Made by a program: the position numbers and the translations under genes. A stretch of 64,000 nt of DNA from sequence record PZ386970.1; one strand, 5' to 3'. Shown piece after piece: positions 29,403-54,314 of the stretch (the stretch's first letter is position 1; the number at the start of each line of letters is the position of its first letter). The notes beneath the pieces are model-generated. The model worked only from the letters and a program-made list of their open reading frames with translations. It did not search any database and had not been told where the DNA came from. This DNA comes from a phage.

Positions 29403-29432
29403 TTTAAAACTTTAAATGGCTCTTAACGAGCC
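29400..29432 (-). terminator. hairpin (GGCUC-GUUAA-GAGCC) with U-rich tail 3' of kinase gene
   Basis: short stem, AU-rich downstream. Confidence 0.3.
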
Positions 29433-29971
29433 CATTTAATGATTTCTGTAATCAAATAATTACGTTCGCTTGCATTAAATCCTATAACTTTGTTAGCACC
29501 ATCATGATTAAGTAATTGATACGTTTGGATTTTGTTATGAATTGCAAACTCTTCAAAATATGAAATGACTGTATTAAAACCGAATGAAGACAAAGTAATA
29601 AGGTCGTCTTCAAAACTTTCAGTCATTTCGTTACGTGTTAAAATAATTGTGAACACATCATGGTTTTGGCAAAGACGAACATAATCCTGTTCATAAACGT
29701 CAAGAACCGAGTCCACATCTTGTCGAATACGTCCATAAACCCAGTTACTAATATATCCACGGTCTAACAGATAAATCTTAGTAGGGTCTAAATAATTCAA
29801 CATCGTTTCGAAACAACCAACTTCATTTCGAGACTTAACATCGAAACGCCCATCAACTGTTCGTTTAGGGAAATCAATCTTTACATATCTTTCACTAATT
29901 TCCATTATGTCATTAATGAAAGTTGTTTTACCAGCATTATCTGGGCCGTCTACTAAAATAATTTTAGCCAT
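29423..29971 (-). CDS. P-loop nucleotide kinase, thymidylate kinase-like
   Basis: Walker A ILVDGPDNAGKTT; downstream DRGY motif resembling the Tmk DRx motif; 182 aa. Confidence 0.55.
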   Translation of the reverse strand: MAKIILVDGPDNAGKTTFINDIMEISERYVKIDFPKRTVDGRFDVKSRNEVGCFETMLNYLDPTKIYLLDRGYISNWVYGRIRQDVDSVLDVYEQDYVRLCQNHDVFTIILTRNEMTESFEDDLITLSSFGFNTVISYFEEFAIHNKIQTYQLLNHDGANKVIGFNASERNYLITEIIKWAR

Positions 29972-29972
29972 T

Positions 29973-30872
29973 TTATTCCTCGATTACGACATCTTCGTAT
30001 TTAGGTATATTATACGGTGAAGAAATTAAAGCATTAAAGTAGATGAACTCACCAAGACCTGGATGGAATACTTCTTCAGGATTTTCGAAATATTGAATTT
30101 TCGGACGTCCTTTAAGAATTTGATAGTACTCAGTTTTAGTTGGATTAAAAATTCGAATCAGCGCTTCTTCAGGATACTTATTTCTGTCGAAACTATTATT
30201 TGGATCAGTTATATAAAGCGGTTGACCTAATTGAATTGCGCATTCAACAACTTGTTCAAAACGATAGCATGGGTCACTAATTCGAAATGGATGAAAAATA
30301 CCATCTAGATGAATAGGAGCCAAATCACCTACAAGACGCTGCATGATGGAAGGACGTATAACTTTCTGAGTTACGATAATCTTATTACCATCTGCACCTG
30401 CGTTAACCAGCACTTCTTTTTGACGTTCATTCAACACAGTAGTTTGAAGTGAACGATTAACTGACAACATATCGGTTTTTAAGAATTCGTCAATATAAAA
30501 ACGTGGTTTATTAGGGTCTGCCGTGATATTGAAATTGAATTCTACATCAAAAGCGCCGTCATATCCAGTGATATCTGTTATTAGAAAATCACAATCATAA
30601 TAAGCAATTAATGAATCAACCACAAATTCATTTTCAGACCAGAAATATTTACGAGTGTTATACGCGTTATCTTTATACCATAATGGAACAAACTTAAATT
30701 CCGGGAAAAGACGTTCACATTCTTTAATATCAGATGCATTACGTGGATATGTAATCACATCACCCGGATTAGCACGGTGCAAATGAAGTTGGAAGTTGCC
30801 ATCCTTAAGGATAGCATACTGTCCAGTTTCATAAGACCGCATACTCAAGATTGGTACGCGGAAAATAGCCAT
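29973..30872 (-). CDS. hypothetical protein (299 aa), cluster member of unknown function
   Basis: TAATG-coupled to the hydroxymethylase-like gene; no family recognised. Confidence 0.5.
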   Translation of the reverse strand: MAIFRVPILSMRSYETGQYAILKDGNFQLHLHRANPGDVITYPRNASDIKECERLFPEFKFVPLWYKDNAYNTRKYFWSENEFVVDSLIAYYDCDFLITDITGYDGAFDVEFNFNITADPNKPRFYIDEFLKTDMLSVNRSLQTTVLNERQKEVLVNAGADGNKIIVTQKVIRPSIMQRLVGDLAPIHLDGIFHPFRISDPCYRFEQVVECAIQLGQPLYITDPNNSFDRNKYPEEALIRIFNPTKTEYYQILKGRPKIQYFENPEEVFHPGLGEFIYFNALISSPYNIPKYEDVVIEE

Positions 30873-31588
30873 TAGTCAAGGAATCCTTTAACATAATCAA
30901 AATCACGTTCAAACACATGGGCACTTACCATGGTATGAGTATAATCACCAACTTCTACACCACATTCGTTAGCGATATAATGAAGTAATTTTCCTTGGAG
31001 ATAAAAATCCAACTGCATAACAACAGCACAATTCTGAGAACGCATATGACAGTGGGTATAAAGCTTACCATCACGAATATAATAAGTCACTGAGTCAGTA
31101 CATGGATATTCAAGCGTTTCGTCCGAATCAAGCAAAGCCTGATCAGAACTTTCTAGAATTTGGAACACAACTCTTCGGGAGTTAGGCTTCTCTTTAAGTT
31201 CTTTTAGAAGAGCTGGTAATTGGGCCGCAATTCGAGGACCATAGAAAGTGTTGAAGTTCGCAGGCAAAGCATCTGATTTTGGTTTAGAAATAAATTTAGC
31301 GACATTAGGATATGCCTTAAACGCTTCTTCTGCATCAGTACCACCAGAAATCATAAACTTCCAGAAATCTTCGGCATATTCATAAGAGATGCGGTTAATA
31401 CGTGGGTCGGTCATTTTGAATGATGATGGAGTGTCAACAACTACTGTCATGGACCCAATTTCATTACAACGTCCAATACGAGAATCAGTTACGAATTCCG
31501 GGTTTTCTAAAATTTCACGATTGACTGCTTTAAATGCGGCTTGAAAATCTGCTGCTTTGATATATTTCATTGTGTTATGTTTTCCCAT
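30872..31588 (-). CDS. 42: thymidylate synthase-family pyrimidine hydroxymethylase, gp42-like (dCMP hydroxymethylase), divergent
   Basis: KPNSRRVVFQI and PCTDSVTYYIRDGKL align with T4 gp42 NPDSRRGIMIY and MCTNTVQYLIRDKKI (catalytic Cys); 238 aa. Confidence 0.7.
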   Translation of the reverse strand: MGKHNTMKYIKAADFQAAFKAVNREILENPEFVTDSRIGRCNEIGSMTVVVDTPSSFKMTDPRINRISYEYAEDFWKFMISGGTDAEEAFKAYPNVAKFISKPKSDALPANFNTFYGPRIAAQLPALLKELKEKPNSRRVVFQILESSDQALLDSDETLEYPCTDSVTYYIRDGKLYTHCHMRSQNCAVVMQLDFYLQGKLLHYIANECGVEVGDYTHTMVSAHVFERDFDYVKGFLD

Positions 31589-31607: not shown

Positions 31608-31633
31608 ATTATATACTCAATTCGTAAAGCTTA
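31608..31633 (-). promoter_or_regulatory. putative middle-type promoter (GCTTTAC box, 11 nt, TATAAT)
   Basis: upstream of the hydroxymethylase-like gene. Confidence 0.3.
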
Positions 31634-31870
31634 TTTGAATTTCTTGGCAATGTTGATATAACGTAAAGCTTCAGAATCTATACTTCCAAGAACACTATGA
31701 AGGAATGCATCAGTGTAGTATTCCAATTGAACAGGTTCTTTAATCACTTTAGCCGCTTTGGTTTCAAACAGGCCCATCAGGGCCTTTTTAAGAATTTGTT
31801 CGTTAGTGTTCAGTTTTATAGTCAAAATCTCTTCATTAAGTTTATAATTAAAAGTTTTTCTAGAAATCAT
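31631..31870 (-). CDS. hypothetical protein (79 aa)
   Basis: ORF only. Confidence 0.4.
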   Translation of the reverse strand: MISRKTFNYKLNEEILTIKLNTNEQILKKALMGLFETKAAKVIKEPVQLEYYTDAFLHSVLGSIDSEALRYINIAKKFK

Positions 31871-33027
31871 TCCGGGTACCTCAAAGCGTCATCAGAGTTA
31901 GTTATATCAATAATAGATATAGAGTTTTCTGCTAACCCGTTTTTAGATAATTGACGTTTATAATACCTTTCACAATATGTACACGTTGACCCACAGATTT
32001 CATTAGCACAATCAAAATCCGGATGTCTGAACCACCTTTTTTCTAAAAAGCCATCTAACAAAGAGGTTTCAATATTTACTGTATGTGAAAACTCAGTCTC
32101 ATTTTCAAGAGTGAAAATAGTCTCTAAAGGCTTCCACAGTTCTAACAAATTACCTTCAAACTTTTCAGAAGCGTATGCTTCAAGAACTTTCAAAATGTAG
32201 TCTGTGCTACCTGTACGTCCTGAAACTTTGAATTGAGTGATACCAATATCATTATAAAGTTTCAAATCTTGTGGACGAACAAAACGAGTTCTCAACCAGT
32301 TAAACGGGTCTGTATCACGAGCTTTAATACAGTGCTGCATAGGATATCCATTTAAGGATTTAGCATCATCAGCTGTAACATCAGTACTATGGAAAATATA
32401 GCAAGAGTCACGATAGCTACAATGTGTTGTATACCCTTTACCAGCATTAGAACAGAACTCATTTACAAGAACTTCAAATATTATATTGTTTTTATTGCAA
32501 AACTCTGCTGCACGCTTCAGGAAAGAAACTGAACGGTTCTTATGAATTCCACAGCAGACCTTTTTGATATTATACTGGTCATGTAAGTATTTGATTTGAG
32601 TTACAGCATCGACATGTAGAATTGTTGAAACTTCAATCTCAATGTCTTTATTGACTTCACGAACAATTTCCATAACAACAGGGTTAGCGATAGTAATACG
32701 CCATACGCCTATTGACCAAAGATACTGAACATAATCCTGAATAGCTTTCTTCTTCCACTCAACTAGTTCTCTTTTTGAACCAGGATTTATCGTGTTGAGT
32801 GTATAGTTAAAGCAAATACCTAATTCGTTACAACGTTTAACATAATCTTCTAACATCTTTTTGTCAACGTCAGGAAGCCTAAAATCAGGTCTGGCTGCTA
32901 CAAAAGCCATTTCTCTTGTAGAGCCGTATACTTCGTTTATCAAGCTATTAGGATAAGTTTTATTGAGCTCTACGATTTTATCAAGAAGAGCTAAATCAAA
33001 ATTCGTTCCGATTTTAAAAGTATTCAT
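31867..33027 (-). CDS. Cys-rich putative metalloenzyme, weak resemblance to peptidase-U32-family Fe-S proteins
   Basis: 386 aa; EVLVNEFCSNAGKGYTTHCSY resembles the U32 signature; additional C-terminal CxxxxCxxxCxxC; N-terminal pattern similar to U32 barrel. Confidence 0.35.
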   Translation of the reverse strand: MNTFKIGTNFDLALLDKIVELNKTYPNSLINEVYGSTREMAFVAARPDFRLPDVDKKMLEDYVKRCNELGICFNYTLNTINPGSKRELVEWKKKAIQDYVQYLWSIGVWRITIANPVVMEIVREVNKDIEIEVSTILHVDAVTQIKYLHDQYNIKKVCCGIHKNRSVSFLKRAAEFCNKNNIIFEVLVNEFCSNAGKGYTTHCSYRDSCYIFHSTDVTADDAKSLNGYPMQHCIKARDTDPFNWLRTRFVRPQDLKLYNDIGITQFKVSGRTGSTDYILKVLEAYASEKFEGNLLELWKPLETIFTLENETEFSHTVNIETSLLDGFLEKRWFRHPDFDCANEICGSTCTYCERYYKRQLSKNGLAENSISIIDITNSDDALRYPE

Positions 33028-33469: not shown

Positions 33470-35155
33470 TTAGATTCGTTCCCATTGATGAGTGATATCG
33501 CCACCGATTGGACGATAGGAAACACCAGTTTCTTTATCAGTTAGTACCCATTTACCAGGATTTTTTGTAATCAGAGTAGCCGTTACAGGTTCTGCTACGT
33601 CATAACTAATAGAGCCGTCCTGAAGTACACGGCCCATGTTACGTAATTGCTTAGTCAGAAGTTCCATGCCTTTATAATATGCGGCTACCGCTTTAAGTGG
33701 ATTATTCTTGAAATAACCACCCAATGCAATCCAGATAATTGCCACCGCCAAATGATGATACTCGTTAAACGAACTCATCTTTCCATATTTGTAAACTAAT
33801 GGATTGATGTTAATAGTCACATTACAAGTTGTTTCATCAATAGTAAACTGACCCCAGGTCGGATTAGCATTGAATTCATCATAACCTGAAACAGCATAAA
33901 GCACTTTAGCTTCATCATATAATTTTGGCCCGTAAATCTTGGTTTCACCAAAATATCCACGAGGGTCGATAAACTTGACTTCGCCGTTATCAGTAATCAT
34001 AGTATTACTGAAGTTCGGGTCACCGTGAATAACAGAGTACTGTCCCTGAGAACGGTTATGATAACGAATAAGATGTTCTAAAGCTTGTTTCAACATTGGC
34101 TTCAGACGTCCAATCTTAGTGTAGTTCACGTGTGTGATTTTACCAAATGAATCAATCAATGGCTGAATGCTTTCACAACGATCAATAACTTTCGTATAGA
34201 ACTCTTTAGTGAAATCACGGCGAACAGTTTCAGGACTTACAAAATAAGTGTCTGTGCTGAATTTCAGTGCATCTAAAATTGCATCAACAATTTGTGGACG
34301 AGCAAGACTTGATTTGGATTTAATATATTCAAATGCCGGCTTACCTTTAATGCGTTCCATTTCAAAGTTATTTTCATTAACAGAAACTAACTGAGGAACT
34401 GAATCTGATTTCACTTTCAAATACCACGAAATCTCATCTTTCTGAAGAGCTCGACCCTGTTCGGTTAATGCGAATTTAGTTACAGTTTCTTCACCAATTT
34501 CAACTGCATTAAAACTACGATTAAGTTCACGAACTTCATGAGCTTTTTCAAGTTTAGGCATATCACCTAAATCAATTATATTCATAAGCTCTGATTTATT
34601 GAATGCGCCGCTGTAAAGGAATTCTACGAAATCACGTCCTTTGCAGTATTCATGAATTTCCTCATCGGTAGAACCCATATAGAATTCCCAGTCTTTGAAT
34701 TGATAAATTCCTACAACATTACCGCCTGTTGCACCTACATTAGTGATATTTTCACCGTCGAAATTATATCGACATTCATCACCCTTAACATAGATTGCGT
34801 TAACATTCCAAGACCATGAACCAAAATCAGGAATAATATCGCACCAGTTAACAATTACGTTATGGCCGTCTAAATCTTTGTGTAATTTAGCAAGAGCATA
34901 AGCAGAACCATACGCTTCATCAACTGTACGAATAGTCACATTGAACCCTTCTTGCTCACAATAAGCTCGAACAGTTTCAGCAAATTTTGAATGAACTACT
35001 ACAATAATTTCATCTGCGCCAAGGTCAGAATAAATTGTATATAAATTGCTCAGAATAGTGTCTTGTTTATAGTTAACAAGCACCTTAGGAATATGATGCG
35101 TTATTGGATACAAACGAGTTGCCAGTCCGGCACCAAGAATAACAGCTTTTTTCAT
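33470..35155 (-). CDS. bifunctional sugar-1-phosphate nucleotidyltransferase (N-terminal) / APH-like sugar kinase (C-terminal)
   Basis: N-terminus MKKAVILGAGLATRLYPIT (GxGTRL NTP-transferase motif); C-terminus VIHGDPNFSNTMI...FIDPRG (Brenner HGDxxxxN and DxE/D kinase motifs); 561 aa. Confidence 0.65.
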   Translation of the reverse strand: MKKAVILGAGLATRLYPITHHIPKVLVNYKQDTILSNLYTIYSDLGADEIIVVVHSKFAETVRAYCEQEGFNVTIRTVDEAYGSAYALAKLHKDLDGHNVIVNWCDIIPDFGSWSWNVNAIYVKGDECRYNFDGENITNVGATGGNVVGIYQFKDWEFYMGSTDEEIHEYCKGRDFVEFLYSGAFNKSELMNIIDLGDMPKLEKAHEVRELNRSFNAVEIGEETVTKFALTEQGRALQKDEISWYLKVKSDSVPQLVSVNENNFEMERIKGKPAFEYIKSKSSLARPQIVDAILDALKFSTDTYFVSPETVRRDFTKEFYTKVIDRCESIQPLIDSFGKITHVNYTKIGRLKPMLKQALEHLIRYHNRSQGQYSVIHGDPNFSNTMITDNGEVKFIDPRGYFGETKIYGPKLYDEAKVLYAVSGYDEFNANPTWGQFTIDETTCNVTININPLVYKYGKMSSFNEYHHLAVAIIWIALGGYFKNNPLKAVAAYYKGMELLTKQLRNMGRVLQDGSISYDVAEPVTATLITKNPGKWVLTDKETGVSYRPIGGDITHQWERI

Positions 35156-35208: not shown

Positions 35209-35340
35209 TTCATACTTTGCCTGTAGACCAATCATAATCCATCCAATTACAAGTGTTGGAATCATTACTGGAGCCGTTAAGCTCCAGTAGATAGTCATGA
35301 CAAGCATCAATAGTAAAAGTCCTATTGTTATTGCTTTCAT
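35197..35340 (-). CDS. small membrane protein (47 aa)
   Basis: manual translation MKAITIGLLLLMLVMTIYWSL...; TAATG-coupled to SIS gene stop. Confidence 0.3.
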   Translation of the reverse strand: MKAITIGLLLLMLVMTIYWSLTAPVMIPTLVIGWIMIGLQAKYECFN

Positions 35341-35972
35341 TATTCGCCTCGTAACATGGCACCTAGTGCACCGCCAGGGTGGAACTTAAGGAAGTCATTA
35401 GAGGTAAATCCACGTTCAGAAGAAAGGTTGATAGCAAACGTATCGATAAGCGCTAACAACAATGTAGTGGACATTGTCGGAGCTAAAGAGTTCTCATCGA
35501 CCTCTACCGCGATGCCTGTACAGAAAGAGTAATCAAAAAGGGCTTCATTTTCTTGCGGAATGTCAGGGTTACAATGTAACAGAATCTGTTTAACCTGAGG
35601 ACGAATCATACGAAGATGTTTAGCAACACCTATCATTTCTTCGGTCTTACCAGAACGACTAATATGAATCAACACATCATTAGGCGCAATGAATCCTGCA
35701 TCACCGTGAGAATAATGCCCGGTGTTCAAGTACATACTAGGAATACCTAGTGAAGCAAATGTCTCAGAAGCTTTAGTTGCAATATTAGCATTCTTACCAA
35801 CACCTGTAATAATTACTCGGCTTTCATAATTACTAAGTCCTGGGCGTCGAAGAGTTTCTAGAATAGCATTATAACGAGCAGGGTTTTGACTAATTACTTT
35901 GGCCATAGTAGCCAAAGAAGAAGCTTGTTTTATGATTGCGTCAATAGCGATAGTGATTGGTGTAGTTTTCAT
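35340..35972 (-). CDS. SIS-domain sugar-phosphate isomerase, KdsD/GutQ-like (arabinose-5-phosphate isomerase-like), no CBS domains
   Basis: VIITGVGKNANIATKASETFASLGIPS...HISRSGKTEE and FLKFHPGGALG match the KdsD SIS domain; 210 aa. Confidence 0.7.
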   Translation of the reverse strand: MKTTPITIAIDAIIKQASSLATMAKVISQNPARYNAILETLRRPGLSNYESRVIITGVGKNANIATKASETFASLGIPSMYLNTGHYSHGDAGFIAPNDVLIHISRSGKTEEMIGVAKHLRMIRPQVKQILLHCNPDIPQENEALFDYSFCTGIAVEVDENSLAPTMSTTLLLALIDTFAINLSSERGFTSNDFLKFHPGGALGAMLRGE

Positions 35973-50983: not shown

Positions 50984-51454
50984 TTAATCATGTTTCCACA
51001 CCCCATCGGTATTTGACCAAAGTCGCTGATTATCTGATCCTCGCCACAGCTTTTTGGTCGGAAGATTTTTCTCATACTTCCCATCAATAATAACATCAAC
51101 ATATTTAAGCATTTCTAGCTGTTTAATATCTTCAAACTTATATCCTGTCCACAACCAAATGCTTTTATTAGGATAAAGATTTTTTACTGTTTGAACAATG
51201 CAATGAATAACATCTCGGTTATCAGGATAGAGAGGGTCACCTCCGGTTATAGTCAATCCTTCTATATAATCATTATTCAAACATTCAATTAATTGTTCTA
51301 GTGTTTCACCAGTGAATGGAATACCATTTCTAGCATTCCATGTTGATTTATTATAACACCCTTCGCATTTATGCAAACACCCTGTAACGAAAAGAACGAC
51401 CCTACAACCAGGGCCATTCACAAAATCGCAAGGATAAAACCTATCATAATTCAT
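50984..51454 (-). CDS. nrdG: anaerobic ribonucleotide reductase activating protein NrdG (radical SAM)
   Basis: 156 aa; CLHKCEGC (CxxxCxxC) radical-SAM motif, GGDP. Confidence 0.85.
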   Translation of the reverse strand: MNYDRFYPCDFVNGPGCRVVLFVTGCLHKCEGCYNKSTWNARNGIPFTGETLEQLIECLNNDYIEGLTITGGDPLYPDNRDVIHCIVQTVKNLYPNKSIWLWTGYKFEDIKQLEMLKYVDVIIDGKYEKNLPTKKLWRGSDNQRLWSNTDGVWKHD

Positions 51455-52751
51455 TGGTGTTTAACCCTATGCATGATTTCTTTATTTTTACCGAGATTAA
51501 ATCCGCGTTCGTTCGGATTTCCCAAATAGCCGCATGTTCTTCTTATGGTGTTCATCTTTTTAGGATCAGTTTCTCCACAAACTGAACAAACAAATCCGTT
51601 TTCAGTAGGAGTCATTTCATGAGTACTTCCGCATGTAAAACATTTATCCACTGGCATATTAACACCAAAATAATCTAAATGTTGTGCAGCATAATCCCAG
51701 ACAGCCTCAAGACCCTTTAAATTGTTTTTCATATCTGGAAGTTCAACATAAGAAATGTGACCACCTGTCGCAATGAAATGATATGGCGCTTCACGAGAAA
51801 TCTTTTCAAATGGAGTAATATTTTCTTCTACTGAAACATGGAAACTGTTAGTGTACCAGCCTTTATCGGTAACATCTTTTACACTTCCATATTTTTCTGT
51901 GTCTAGTTTACAGAAACGATAACAAAGGTTTTCAGCAGGAGTAGAATACAAACTAAAAGCAAATCCAGTTCTTTCAGTCCACTGTTTAAGATGAGCATTC
52001 ATTTTAGTTAAAATTTCTTGCCCAATATCACGACCAACAAGAATATTCAATTCATGAATACCAATGTATCCTAAAGACACTGAACTTCTACCATTTTTAA
52101 ATAACTCAATTATGTCATCATCAGGTTTAAGACGAACCCCGAATGCACCTTCTTGGTAAAGAATAGGAGCAACAGTCGCTTTAACTCCTTTTAAGGAACT
52201 AATTCTACACATCAAAGCTTCAAAACATAAATCCATTCGTTCATTGAATAATTCAACAAATTTCTGTTCATTGAACTGTGTTCCAATATAAGAATCTAAT
52301 GCGATACGAGGAAGATTCAGTGTTACAACACCGAGATTATTACGTCCATCAAGAATTTCATTACCAGTCGAATCTTTCCATACACTCAAGAAACTACGGC
52401 AGCCCATTGGAGAAACAGGAACAGATGAACCGGTAATAGCTTTATTATTCTTAACAGAAATAATGTCAGGATACATTCTTTTGCTTGCACATTCTAACGC
52501 AAGTTGTTTAATATCATAGTTCGGATCATCTTTATAAAGATTAACACCCTCTTCAACAAACATAACAAGTTTAGGAAAAATAGGAGTTATCCCATCACGA
52601 CCAAGACCTTTAATACGATTTTTCAGAATTGCTTTCTGAATCATTCGTTCAGTCCAGTCAGTTCCCGTACCAAATGTAATTGTTACAAAAGGCGTTTGTC
52701 CATTAGAGCTGAAAAGTGTATTTACTTCATCATTATATTCAGCATGAGTCG
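51451..52751 (-). CDS. nrdD: anaerobic ribonucleoside-triphosphate reductase NrdD, exon 2
   Basis: C-terminal CxxC...C and glycyl-radical region (RTCGYLG); 5' boundary predicted from intron terminal G and reading-frame continuity. Confidence 0.75.
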
Positions 52752-52756
52752 CAAAT

Positions 52757-53527
52757 TCATGCCCGTTTATATGAAACAACAAAATTTGGATAGTCCATAG
52801 ATATGCAACGTTCTTTTATAGTGCTAGGATGAAAATTTAGCGCTTTAGCTGCTTCTATATAAGACGTATACTTAATACCGTCAACAACCACATATTCAGG
52901 AACTTTATGAATAGTAGTCTTAATACTCAAAACAAGAGGATGAGTTTCGACTTCACTTTCAGTGCAATTTAAATATTCCGCTGCTTTTTTAAAACTTCTA
53001 AAAGTTTTATTTTTAAGCTTTATCGATACTTGTTTTTTACTTTTTCGACTATTGATATTATTTTGCACATGTTCCTTAGATCTTCCATTTTTAGCATAAT
53101 ATTCAGCTACAGAAGATTTTATATTGTTTTTATGAGATTTGGATAACACTTTACCCTTATGAGCATCTCTTAATTTTTGAATATGTTCTTCAGTATCCGG
53201 ATGTTTATAAAACTTTTTACCGCCTATGGATTTATTTAAACATTTTTTGCTATAAAAATATTTACGTATGACCTCTTCTTCATGTTTTAATGCATCTTTA
53301 TAACTATCAAATGTTTTTAAAATTATCCATTTAGTAGGTGTATCAGTTTTTAAGCGTTCATTTATATACTTAGATGACGTTGTGTAAGTTTTCCAGTTTG
53401 TGGGCTTGTTTTTAATTGTTCTAAATTTTTTATAACCGATATAAATGTCGCCATTAGAAAACTTAACTAAGTATGTAAATGCGTCTTTATCTTTTATTTT
53501 AGTACAACGTCTTTTTATCCATTTCAT
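52757..53527 (-). CDS. intron-encoded GIY-YIG homing endonuclease (I-TevII-like)
   Basis: 256 aa; FTYLVKFSNGDIYIGYKKF GIY-YIG core, NUMOD-like repeats, C-terminal HTH-like IKYTSYIEAAKALNFHPSTI; own RBS GAGGTG. Confidence 0.75.
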   Translation of the reverse strand: MKWIKRRCTKIKDKDAFTYLVKFSNGDIYIGYKKFRTIKNKPTNWKTYTTSSKYINERLKTDTPTKWIILKTFDSYKDALKHEEEVIRKYFYSKKCLNKSIGGKKFYKHPDTEEHIQKLRDAHKGKVLSKSHKNNIKSSVAEYYAKNGRSKEHVQNNINSRKSKKQVSIKLKNKTFRSFKKAAEYLNCTESEVETHPLVLSIKTTIHKVPEYVVVDGIKYTSYIEAAKALNFHPSTIKERCISMDYPNFVVSYKRA

Positions 53528-53556
53528 TGTTTCACCTCGTATTCATAAGATAATCT

Positions 53557-53564
53557 TATTTATA
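53557..53564 (-). promoter_or_regulatory. late promoter TATAAATA inside the intron, upstream of the homing endonuclease ORF
   Basis: exact TATAAATA about 30 nt before the ATG; T4 intron endonucleases are late-expressed. Confidence 0.5.
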
Positions 53565-53776
53565 CAAGATGACTGCTGCATGTCGCCATGCAGATTAGAC
53601 TATATCTTCATCTTTCGATGCCGGCCGTTTCGAATAGCATTAGCTTCTATTCTACACCGTTACATTCATCACGGTTAGTCGTTAGGCATTTAGTTCAAAA
53701 GAACATTTAGCACGGGATTGTCTTACTAGAGAGGTTCCCCGTTTAGACCGGTTTTACATGAGCCTGAATTAAATTA

Positions 53777-54314
53777 ACTCATACGCCTGAAATGCATCGT
53801 ATACATCTTTTTCTGTTTTAGATTGAGCATAATTCAACGCATCAGCGATTTGCCATTTTTCTGCATCCTCAATATGTTTTGCATAGGTGCGTTTAACATA
53901 AGGAGAAAGTACTTTATCTACATTTGCAAAAGTCGTTCCGCCGTATTGATGGGAAGCAACCTGTGCAGTAATTTGTGCCATAATTGCAGTAGCAACGCCA
54001 ATTGATTTAGGAGTTTCAATCTGTGCATTACCTAGCTTAAATCCATTTTCAAGCATTCCTTTTAAATCTACTAAACAGCAATTAGTAAAAGGAAGAGCAG
54101 GGGAATAATCAATATCGTGCACGTGAATAATTCCGCTTTCATGCGCTTTCATAATAAAAGACGGGACCATATTTTTGGCAATGTGTTTAGACACAATACC
54201 AGCCATAAGGTCCCGTTGAGTTGGAAAAACACGAGAATCTTTATTAGCATTCTCGTTCAAAAGATCTTTATTAGTTTTATGAATTAATCCTTCAATTTCT
54301 TTTTCAATTTTCAT
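53777..54314 (-). CDS. nrdD: anaerobic ribonucleoside-triphosphate reductase NrdD, exon 1
   Basis: 181-aa ORF ends in a stop just inside the intron; exon ends at U of GAGU predicted by P1 pairing. Confidence 0.75.

Follow-up and report, generated by a model that had tools for sequence, protein, structure and literature searches.

What does a cysteine-rich protein of the peptidase-U32 family do inside a phage DNA-modification cluster? The question is raised by an open reading frame (ORF) at positions 31867..33027, minus strand, of phage record PZ386970.1, of which we analyzed a stretch of 64,000 nucleotides (the window). The window's modification cluster is 98% identical in DNA over 4.4 kb to those of vB_Eco_mar005P1, PhAPEC2, Bas46 and many others, and the window belongs to a Mosigvirus (RB69/PhAPEC2 type). 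RB69 DNA carries arabinosylated 5-hydroxycytosine (Lee et al. 2026, PMC13326640), and the flavin-bearing ThyA homolog gp48 of RB69 makes 5-hydroxy-deoxycytidine monophosphate (5-hydroxy-dCMP) with oxygen that comes from O2, as found by 18O2 labelling (PMC13326640). From sequence comparison, we lean towards the view that the U32 gene product is a prephenate-dependent, O2-independent C5 hydroxylase of dCMP, which in coliphages would back up the O2/flavin enzyme. The sequence-only reading had left a sugar, base or accessory role open for this protein; we narrow the role to the base, and disfavor the other two, because the gene travels with prephenate-supplying genes and appears to replace the ThyA-like hydroxylase in divergent phages.

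The U32 protein and its invariant cysteines

31867..33027, minus strand: U32-family protein with ATG start, 386 amino acids, ortholog of RB69p050; candidate prephenate-dependent, O2-independent pyrimidine C5 hydroxylase
32401..32475, minus strand: U32 core motif, residues 185-209, with E185 and invariant C192, C203 and C209
31972..32010, minus strand: C-terminal CX4CX3CX2C (C340, C345, C349, C352), a candidate second metal or iron-sulfur (Fe-S) site

A Pfam scan of the 386-residue protein returned Peptidase_U32 (PF01136) as its sole domain, at 42.2 bits (E 7e-11, residues 94-286) against a gathering cut-off of 22.4 bits; homologs carry the same domain in precomputed annotation, and PHROG 5757 was matched across the full length. 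The scan did not find DUF3656, the RlhA domain, or Peptidase_U32_C, the TrhP domain. The NCBIfam TrhP equivalog gave no match, the NCBIfam UbiU model scored 18.5 bits against a 440-bit cut-off, and the window's modification cluster had no gene for a UbiT or UbiV partner. Aligned with hhalign, the phage family profile gave 83.7% probability over 202 columns with E. coli RlhA and 20% with TrhP. A sequence search of the PDB returned no match to the protein. The AlphaFold2 model, built with an alignment of homologs as input, is a beta/alpha (TIM) barrel with a mean predicted local distance difference test score (pLDDT) of 93.5 and a predicted template modeling score (pTM) of 0.91. Searched against the PDB with Foldseek, the model gave as top match 5d88 (E 6.7e-7), the U32 protein Mk0906 of Methanopyrus kandleri and the sole U32 core with a solved structure, with a TM-score of 0.68 normalized to the target; the remaining matches were generic TIM barrels. 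Mk0906 shares the TIM-barrel U32 core with the phage protein, but the two are 11% identical, and the structure covers only the barrel (247 residues) and has no Fe-S cluster. The phage protein is thus a member of the U32 superfamily that stands outside the RlhA, TrhP, UbiU and UbiV families.

The protein is 99.2% identical to RB69p050, which occupies the syntenic position, with the HAD phosphatase gene on one side and the ThyA-like gene on the other. Its identity is 99-100% in 134 phage records; in 10 other Straboviridae genera it is 79-89%, and in eight of these U32 surpasses all other proteins of the cluster in conservation. In the same comparison the DNA polymerase was 64-79% and the ThyA-like enzyme 72-82% identical, and in two genera the HAD phosphatase lay marginally above U32.

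We analyzed the conservation of the cysteines in an alignment of 114 homologs, with identity down to 46%. C158, C192, C203, C209, C233, C340, C345, C349 and C352 were invariant and C177 was conserved in more than 90%; these residues are not incidental. The motif quoted in the sequence-only reading, EVLVNEFCSNAGKGYTTHCSY, corresponds to residues 185-205, and nucleotides 32401-32475 (minus strand) translate to EVLVNEFCSNAGKGYTTHCSYRDSC. The C-terminal cluster, C340-x4-C345-x3-C349-x2-C352, is encoded by nucleotides 31972-32010 and reads CANEICGSTCTYC. That reading had described a 386-residue ORF with a U32-like motif and a C-terminal CxxxxCxxxCxxC cluster; the ORF, the position of the motif, the Pfam score and the invariance of C340-C352 bear it out, and the AlphaFold comparison and the profile comparison with RlhA that it had suggested agree on a U32 protein.

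The spacing of the cysteines in the phage family is CX10CX5CX23C followed by CX4CX3CX2C, with a 10-residue insertion that brings an extra invariant cysteine between the first two cysteines of the family motif. With MAFFT, C192 and C209 align with C169 and C176 of both UbiU and RlhA, residues on which the two proteins depend, and E185 with E161 of RlhA; hhalign pairs C203 and C209 with C169 and C176 of RlhA. Two ligand positions of the canonical CX6CX15CX3/4C pattern align with invariant phage cysteines (C192 or C203, and C209). It is probable, judging from these residues, that the phage enzyme is an Fe-S protein. C192, C203, C209 and C233 could be the ligands of a first [4Fe-4S] cluster, and C340, C345, C349 and C352 those of a second. 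Essential cysteines of RlhA are likewise located in the U32 motif (C169, C176) and in a C-terminal cluster (C580, C611) (PMC5727448); two clusters in one chain would mirror these two groups as well as the two clusters of the UbiU-UbiV heterodimer.

The family name itself suggests a genuine collagenase-type peptidase, serving host takeover or the processing of virion proteins, and many GenBank annotations of the gene follow the name. However, no catalytic mechanism is known for the U32 'peptidases', and all characterized members of the family are tied to hydroxylation. The invariant cysteine pattern fits metal clusters, and the gene is found throughout in a nucleotide or DNA-modification context. 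We regard a peptidase as extremely improbable.

Prephenate-pathway genes and divergent U32 loci

Prephenate is the proven oxygen donor of UbiU/V (PMC10990095), and it is required genetically for the ho5C (5-hydroxycytidine) that depends on RlhA (PMC5727448) and the ho5U (5-hydroxyuridine) that depends on TrhP (PMC6599085). Beside the phage U32 gene, we found a match to the Pfam chorismate mutase domain CM_2 (34.7-46.8 bits, cut-off 27) in six phages, namely Serratia LC53, Klebsiella PhiKpNIH-6, Shewanella Thanatos-1, Proteus Pm5461, Yersinia TG1 and Serratia 92A1. In LC53, PhiKpNIH-6 and Thanatos-1 the matching gene immediately follows U32; in TG1, 92A1 and Pm5461 one small gene separates the two. 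In Thanatos-1, the ThyA-like gene and those for the glycosyltransferase and kinase lie upstream of the U32-chorismate mutase pair, which has moved relative to the ThyA-like gene with its two members still adjacent. R11, R28, K39, E52 and S84, which we take to be the active-site residues of EcCM, were invariant in the phage enzymes when these were aligned with the E. coli PheA and TyrA domains. Chorismate mutases of this type occurred in 54 of 50,697 phage records, every one from a host genus that also carries U32, and lay no more than about 1.5 kb from U32 in every locus inspected. The chorismate mutase gene tracks U32 and not the ThyA-like gene, since U32 and chorismate mutase are both missing from the Dhakaviruses and from the Acinetobacter and Pseudomonas phages, all of which have the ThyA-like gene.

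A similar association was found in uncultured phages, whose loci carry our own handles here. Fusions of 3-deoxy-D-arabino-heptulosonate 7-phosphate (DAHP) synthase with a C-terminal chorismate mutase domain are encoded directly upstream of U32 in L074 (5931-6959; Pfam 113 and 67 bits), directly downstream of it in L062 (8079-9197; 112 and 39 bits), and with a HAD gene in between in L052 (5321-6376; 125 and 65 bits). DAHP synthase without chorismate mutase was found in L010 (8145-8891) and L037 (8080-8826). The evidence for the prephenate link is genomic, but strong: chorismate mutase stands next to U32 in at least six Straboviridae genera, and the fusions in three uncultured lineages. We considered the possibility that the DAHP synthase-like genes are 3-deoxy-D-manno-octulosonate 8-phosphate (KDO-8-P) synthases, which together with the SIS, HAD and NTP-transferase genes would mimic KdsDACB, but judged it unlikely because the NCBIfam DAHP synthase models scored 150-237 bits against 38-67 for KDO-8-P synthase and because three of these genes also encode a fused CM_2 domain. 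The gene order in L052 is glycosyltransferase, SIS, kinase/nucleotidyltransferase, Tmk-like kinase, DAHP synthase/chorismate mutase, HAD and U32, which is the RB69 pathway with U32 in the place of the hydroxylase and a prephenate supply line added.

An exhaustive HMMER search (E <= 1e-3) gave 1,187 clusters at 50% identity, mostly of 350-390 residues. We fetched 46 loci from IMG/VR, 11 from metagenomes and 11 from GTDB genomes, and compared about 51 divergent loci (40 viral or metagenome and 11 genome-bin), in which the U32 homolog is 44-58% identical. Homologs of the window's glycosyltransferase were found by tblastn in 27 of the 40 and five of the 11 loci, and the glycosyltransferase gene often overlaps the start of U32. 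Homologs of the kinase/nucleotidyltransferase (17/40 and 3/11) and of the SIS isomerase (10/40 and 2/11) were also present, and Tmk-like kinases, dUTPase and dCMP deaminase recur. A ThyA-like gene was not found in the ~7 kb on each side of U32 at these loci, with the exception of one weak match of 24% identity. Judging from gene content, U32 appears to take the place of the ThyA-like cytosine hydroxylase in the divergent phages. The genome bins with U32 were 11 of 185,579 species in GTDB and are mostly of strict anaerobes (Erysipelotrichales, Oscillospiraceae, Romboutsia, Gastranaerophilaceae, Tannerella, Phocaeicola).

These loci also bear on the possibility that the protein hydroxylates RNA, as RlhA and TrhP do, and would tune translation during infection by placing ho5U or ho5C in host or phage tRNA or rRNA. 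RNAs are the only known nucleic-acid substrates of U32 enzymes, in reactions that depend on prephenate, and RlhA is the closest E. coli profile match. Against this, the phage protein lacks a detectable DUF3656 or Peptidase_U32_C domain, and every lineage has U32 in clusters for DNA precursors or DNA glycosylation, with glycosyltransferase, Tmk-like kinase, dCMP deaminase, dUTPase or deoxynucleoside kinase genes. The frequent translational coupling of U32 to the glycosyltransferase gene likewise points away from RNA, and we consider this alternative very unlikely.

The modification cluster of the window and oxygen

On the minus strand, the order of genes in the window is DNA polymerase, arabinose-5-phosphate isomerase, kinase/nucleotidyltransferase, HAD phosphatase, U32 and a 79-residue ORF, followed by the ThyA-like enzyme, glycosyltransferase, Tmk-like kinase and UvsX. 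The sequence-only reading had put the U32 gene inside a DNA-modification and sugar-nucleotide cluster, and the neighborhood and its synteny with RB69 agree. A scan of the cluster for promoters and terminators performed no better than on shuffled sequence.

35340..35972, minus strand: arabinose-5-phosphate isomerase (SIS), RB69 gp55 ortholog
33470..35155, minus strand: bifunctional sugar kinase/nucleotidyltransferase, RB69 gp52:53, AfhE-like; Pfam NTP_transferase with a kinase-like C-terminus (PMC13326640)
33084..33485, minus strand: HAD phosphatase, RB69 gp51, AfhF-like
31631..31870, minus strand: small protein of 79 residues, RB69 ORF049c, phrog_8601; overlaps the stop of U32 with its own start (ATGA)
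30872..31588, minus strand: ThyA-like 5-hydroxy-dCMP synthase, RB69 gp48 ortholog; Pfam Thymidylat_synt; O2/flavin-dependent route to 5-hydroxy-dCMP
29973..30872, minus strand: glycosyltransferase, RB69 gp46:47 (arabinosyltransferase 1); homologs abut U32 in divergent phages
29423..29971, minus strand: thymidylate-kinase-like nucleotide kinase, RB69 gp45 ortholog

The product of the cluster is arabinosyl-5-hydroxycytosine and not a glucosyl-hydroxymethylcytosine type of base (PMC13326640), so that a C5 hydroxylase fits the need of the pathway. We evaluated the alternative that U32 acts on the sugar, or on the glycosylated base, as a reductase, oxidase or epimerase tailoring arabinose or its nucleotide-sugar precursor. 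The gene is located between the sugar-activation and base-modification genes, it is accompanied by SIS and NTP-transferase genes in the divergent loci, and the labels in PMC13326640 Table 1 and in the Bas46 record match a role of this kind. However, the same sugar genes occur without U32 in Acinetobacter and Pseudomonas phages and in Dhakaviruses, and production of arabinosyl-5-hydroxycytosine is reported for Acinetobacter phages, DLP3 among them (PMC13326640). Three sugar steps are already given to other proteins, having been assigned in phage HY126 to the isomerase and the AfhE and AfhF homologs, as cited in PMC13326640. A sugar enzyme would also leave unexplained the linkage to chorismate mutase and to the DAHP synthase/chorismate mutase fusions, as well as the missing ThyA-like gene in clusters with U32 only, and the characterized U32 members include no sugar enzyme. 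We therefore consider a role in sugar tailoring unlikely. Other names in use for the gene are 'peptidase', 'homologs among peptidases' and, in the Bas46 record, 'putative enzyme involved in UDP-arabinose biosynthesis'. Papers dealing with RB69, Thanatos, LC53, the Durham collection and Tevenvirinae gave only two table labels, 'Sugar or heterocycle reductase' and 'Homologs among peptidases'. The published labels are guesses; the Discussion of PMC13326640 mentions RNA hydroxylation pathways without tying them to RB69p050.

The adjacency of the U32 and ThyA-like genes in Straboviridae suggests another alternative, that U32 is not itself a hydroxylase but assists the ThyA-like flavoenzyme as an accessory or electron-transfer partner, perhaps by reducing or loading its flavin. 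The many cysteines suggest clusters for electron transfer, and the flavin of the RB69 enzyme is loosely bound (PMC13326640). On the other hand, the ThyA-like enzyme is active alone in E. coli (PMC13326640) and works in phages without U32, many U32 clusters have no ThyA-like gene, and the prephenate-pathway genes are left without explanation. An accessory role is, in our judgment, highly improbable. Each of the four alternatives covers part of the context; none accounts for both the association with prephenate-pathway genes and the apparent substitution of U32 for the ThyA-like gene.

A tblastn search with the U32 protein gave 222 phage records, all with at least 80% identity, from Straboviridae of Enterobacterales and from Shewanella, and none of these was a Tequatrovirus. 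The absence of a T4 counterpart, as claimed from the sequence alone, is in agreement with this distribution. ThyA-like genes were present in 374 phage records. Among the ThyA-like-positive phages, U32 is absent from those of Acinetobacter (57/57), Rhizobium (20/20) and Agrobacterium and from Pseudomonas phage PspYZU05, zero counts that were inferred from the organism tallies of tblastn and checked directly at the DLP1 and PspYZU05 loci. The gene is thus absent from relatives that infect strict aerobes.

The window also encodes an anaerobic ribonucleotide reductase.

50984..54314, minus strand: anaerobic ribonucleotide reductase genes, with nrdG at 50984-51454 and nrdD in two pieces at 51451-52782 and 53769-54314

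By tblastn, the window's nrdD and nrdG are 97-99% identical to NrdD and NrdG of Bas46, and their presence indicates that the phage is adapted to anoxic hosts. With a ThyA-like enzyme that requires O2 (PMC13326640), a phage that has nrdDG would need an O2-free route to its modified base. As a separate observation, nrdD (51451-54314, minus strand) is split by an insert that holds an ORF of 256 residues (52757-53527), whereas nrdD of Bas46 is intact. The insert gave no Rfam match to a group I intron and the ORF no NCBIfam match; it is probably a mobile insertion of homing-endonuclease type.

The 79-residue protein and the glycosyltransferase were analyzed further. In phages of Yersinia (TG1), Serratia (92A1) and Pectobacterium, homologs of the small protein are located between the U32 and chorismate mutase genes; they share the motif EYYxDAFxHS, and the protein has no cysteine. 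A single-sequence AlphaFold2 model of it was a helical hairpin of poor quality (pLDDT 61.5, pTM 0.34). We rejected the possibility that the ORF is a diverged chorismate mutase (BLASTP E = 16, no Pfam match, hhalign 3.7%), which is also countered by the presence of both genes in TG1 and 92A1. The small protein may be a U32 partner, translationally coupled to it by the ATGA overlap. The glycosyltransferase at 29973-30872 gave no Pfam match, yet homologs of 23-27% identity stand beside U32 in most divergent viral loci; by sequence it appears to represent an undescribed family of DNA glycosyltransferases.

Proposed hydroxylation route, precedents and side observations

The route that we propose for 5-hydroxy-dCMP is modeled on the scheme of Pierrel and colleagues (PMC10990095). 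The protein would act as a single-subunit U32 Fe-S enzyme whose substrate is a cytosine nucleotide, most likely dCMP, hydroxylated at C5 without O2. The pyrimidine and prephenate would be bound in the barrel; the ring would undergo a two-electron oxidation, with the electrons passing out through the Fe-S clusters to an acceptor, and decarboxylation of prephenate would free the hydroxide that adds to C5, giving 5-hydroxy-dCMP, phenylpyruvate and CO2. The product would then share the downstream steps of the ThyA-like product, namely the kinase, the polymerase and the arabinosyltransferases. We favor dCMP because the neighboring genes encode nucleotide-level enzymes and because the cytosine replacement of RB69 is complete and pre-replicative (PMC13326640); dUMP or DNA may be the substrate instead. 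In enterobacterial Straboviridae, the ThyA-like and U32 enzymes would form an aerobic/anaerobic pair comparable to TrhO/TrhP and UbiIHF/UbiUV, and U32 would be the sole hydroxylase of the uncultured phages from anoxic habitats. The scheme taken whole, in which a single-chain, two-cluster enzyme converts dCMP to 5-hydroxy-dCMP with prephenate as oxygen donor, is kept beside the O2/flavin enzyme, and stands alone in phages of anaerobes, some of which import DAHP synthase and chorismate mutase, is a proposition that we hold as evenly balanced.

The proposed enzyme has several precedents. RlhA (YdcP), the best E. coli profile match, resembles the phage protein in its U32 domain, makes 5-hydroxycytosine at C2501 of 23S rRNA and requires prephenate and Fe-S biogenesis (PMC5727448); it differs in its length (653 residues against 386), its DUF3656 domain, its cysteine spacing and its substrate, a ribosome precursor as opposed to a DNA-precursor pathway. 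TrhP and TrhO, which make ho5U34 in tRNA, are a precedent for two unrelated enzymes for one product, one O2-dependent and the other of the U32, prephenate-dependent type (PMC6599085), although they act on a tRNA uridine, a rhodanese and not a ThyA homolog serves as aerobic partner, and TrhP has Peptidase_U32_C. UbiU-UbiV, with UbiT, are U32 proteins with [4Fe-4S] clusters on conserved cysteines and are the anaerobic counterpart of flavin/O2 hydroxylases (PMC6747719, PMC10990095). They work as a heterodimer with two clusters, on a lipid and with an SCP2 partner, whereas the phage protein has enough invariant cysteines for two clusters in one chain. The ThyA-like synthase (RB69 gp48, DLP3 gp80) shares with U32 the cluster, the neighboring position and the proposed product, but has an unrelated fold and a flavin/O2-dependent activity that is experimentally shown (PMC13326640), while that of U32 is predicted. 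The phage carboxymethylcytosine pathway of the CmoX/CmoA type is also described as a modification of DNA cytosine at C5 that draws on prephenate (PMC12783734); there the prephenate goes into carboxy-S-adenosylmethionine and is not an oxygen donor, and the enzymes are unrelated.

Several observations weigh against a prephenate-dependent dCMP hydroxylase. MAFFT and hhalign differ on the cysteine equivalent to ligand 1, and the third and fourth canonical ligands (CX15CX3/4C) could not be aligned to the phage protein. What we take to be the strict PROSITE-type U32 signature, E-x-F-x2-G-[SA]-[LIVM]-C-x4-G-x-C-x-[LIVM]-S, was checked on the E. coli paralogs and, as a regular expression, is absent from the phage protein; it matches UbiU, RlhA and TrhP and misses the bona fide member UbiV as well. 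Chorismate mutase was not found in the window or in any Mosigvirus, and the strongest prephenate linkage therefore comes from relatives and not from the window's own genus. The replacement of the ThyA-like gene is judged from a search that spanned only the flanks given above. Some Enterobacter phages and the Dhakaviruses of E. coli, such as JS98, lack U32, so that the gene is not indispensable in facultative anaerobes and would be advantageous rather than obligatory, and the number of independent lineages behind the correlation with oxygen is small. No mononucleotide is among the known U32 substrates, which are RNA or lipid. RB69p050 appears in PMC13326640 only in Table 1, as a 'sugar or heterocycle reductase', and in vitro reconstitution has yet to be achieved for any U32 hydroxylase (PMC10990095), the substrates known so far being ribosome precursors, tRNA and a prenylated lipid.

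If U32 is the dCMP hydroxylase that we favor, phages with an O2-requiring cytosine replacement could keep their DNA disguised in an anaerobic gut host, which would be relevant to phage therapy and to how defense systems see such phages. It would be the first U32 hydroxylase whose substrate is a DNA precursor, and also the first whose substrate is small and soluble, and as a compact, soluble enzyme would be an ideal model for U32 prephenate chemistry. Some 220 GenBank phage records that call the gene a 'peptidase' would then need re-annotation. The 1,187 clusters would suggest that glycosylated hydroxypyrimidines form a large and unexplored class of DNA modification among phages that infect anaerobes, where the shikimate-pathway genes for chorismate mutase and DAHP synthase would be viral auxiliary genes serving DNA modification.

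Further genes were observed at the divergent loci. The L074 contig, binned as Gastranaerophilaceae, encodes the type I Thoeris inhibitor Tad3 (1441-2103) 5 kb from its U32 and DAHP synthase/chorismate mutase cluster. The rarity of U32 in genome bins and the presence of Tad3 both fit phage DNA, and the contig is probably of phage origin. In several gut-phage-like loci, a radical S-adenosylmethionine (SAM) protein of SPASM type is encoded two to three genes upstream of U32 and beside a Tmk-like kinase (L012:4980-6011, L003:1-249). ATP-grasp proteins of the RimK/glutathione-synthetase type were found near U32 in 4 of 132 neighbor proteins scanned from 19 dereplicated loci (L037-L066), and L004 also has a glutamate-cysteine ligase and an ATP-grasp protein. 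On a Clostridia-like contig (L004:12160-14360 and L005), the U32 homolog is located beside NT5C, a deoxynucleoside kinase, a nicotinamide mononucleotide transporter and a radical SAM/SPASM protein. The same contig encodes a second, very divergent U32-like protein of 377 residues and a nucleoside deoxyribosyltransferase, and this gene set may be a different nucleoside-modification module.

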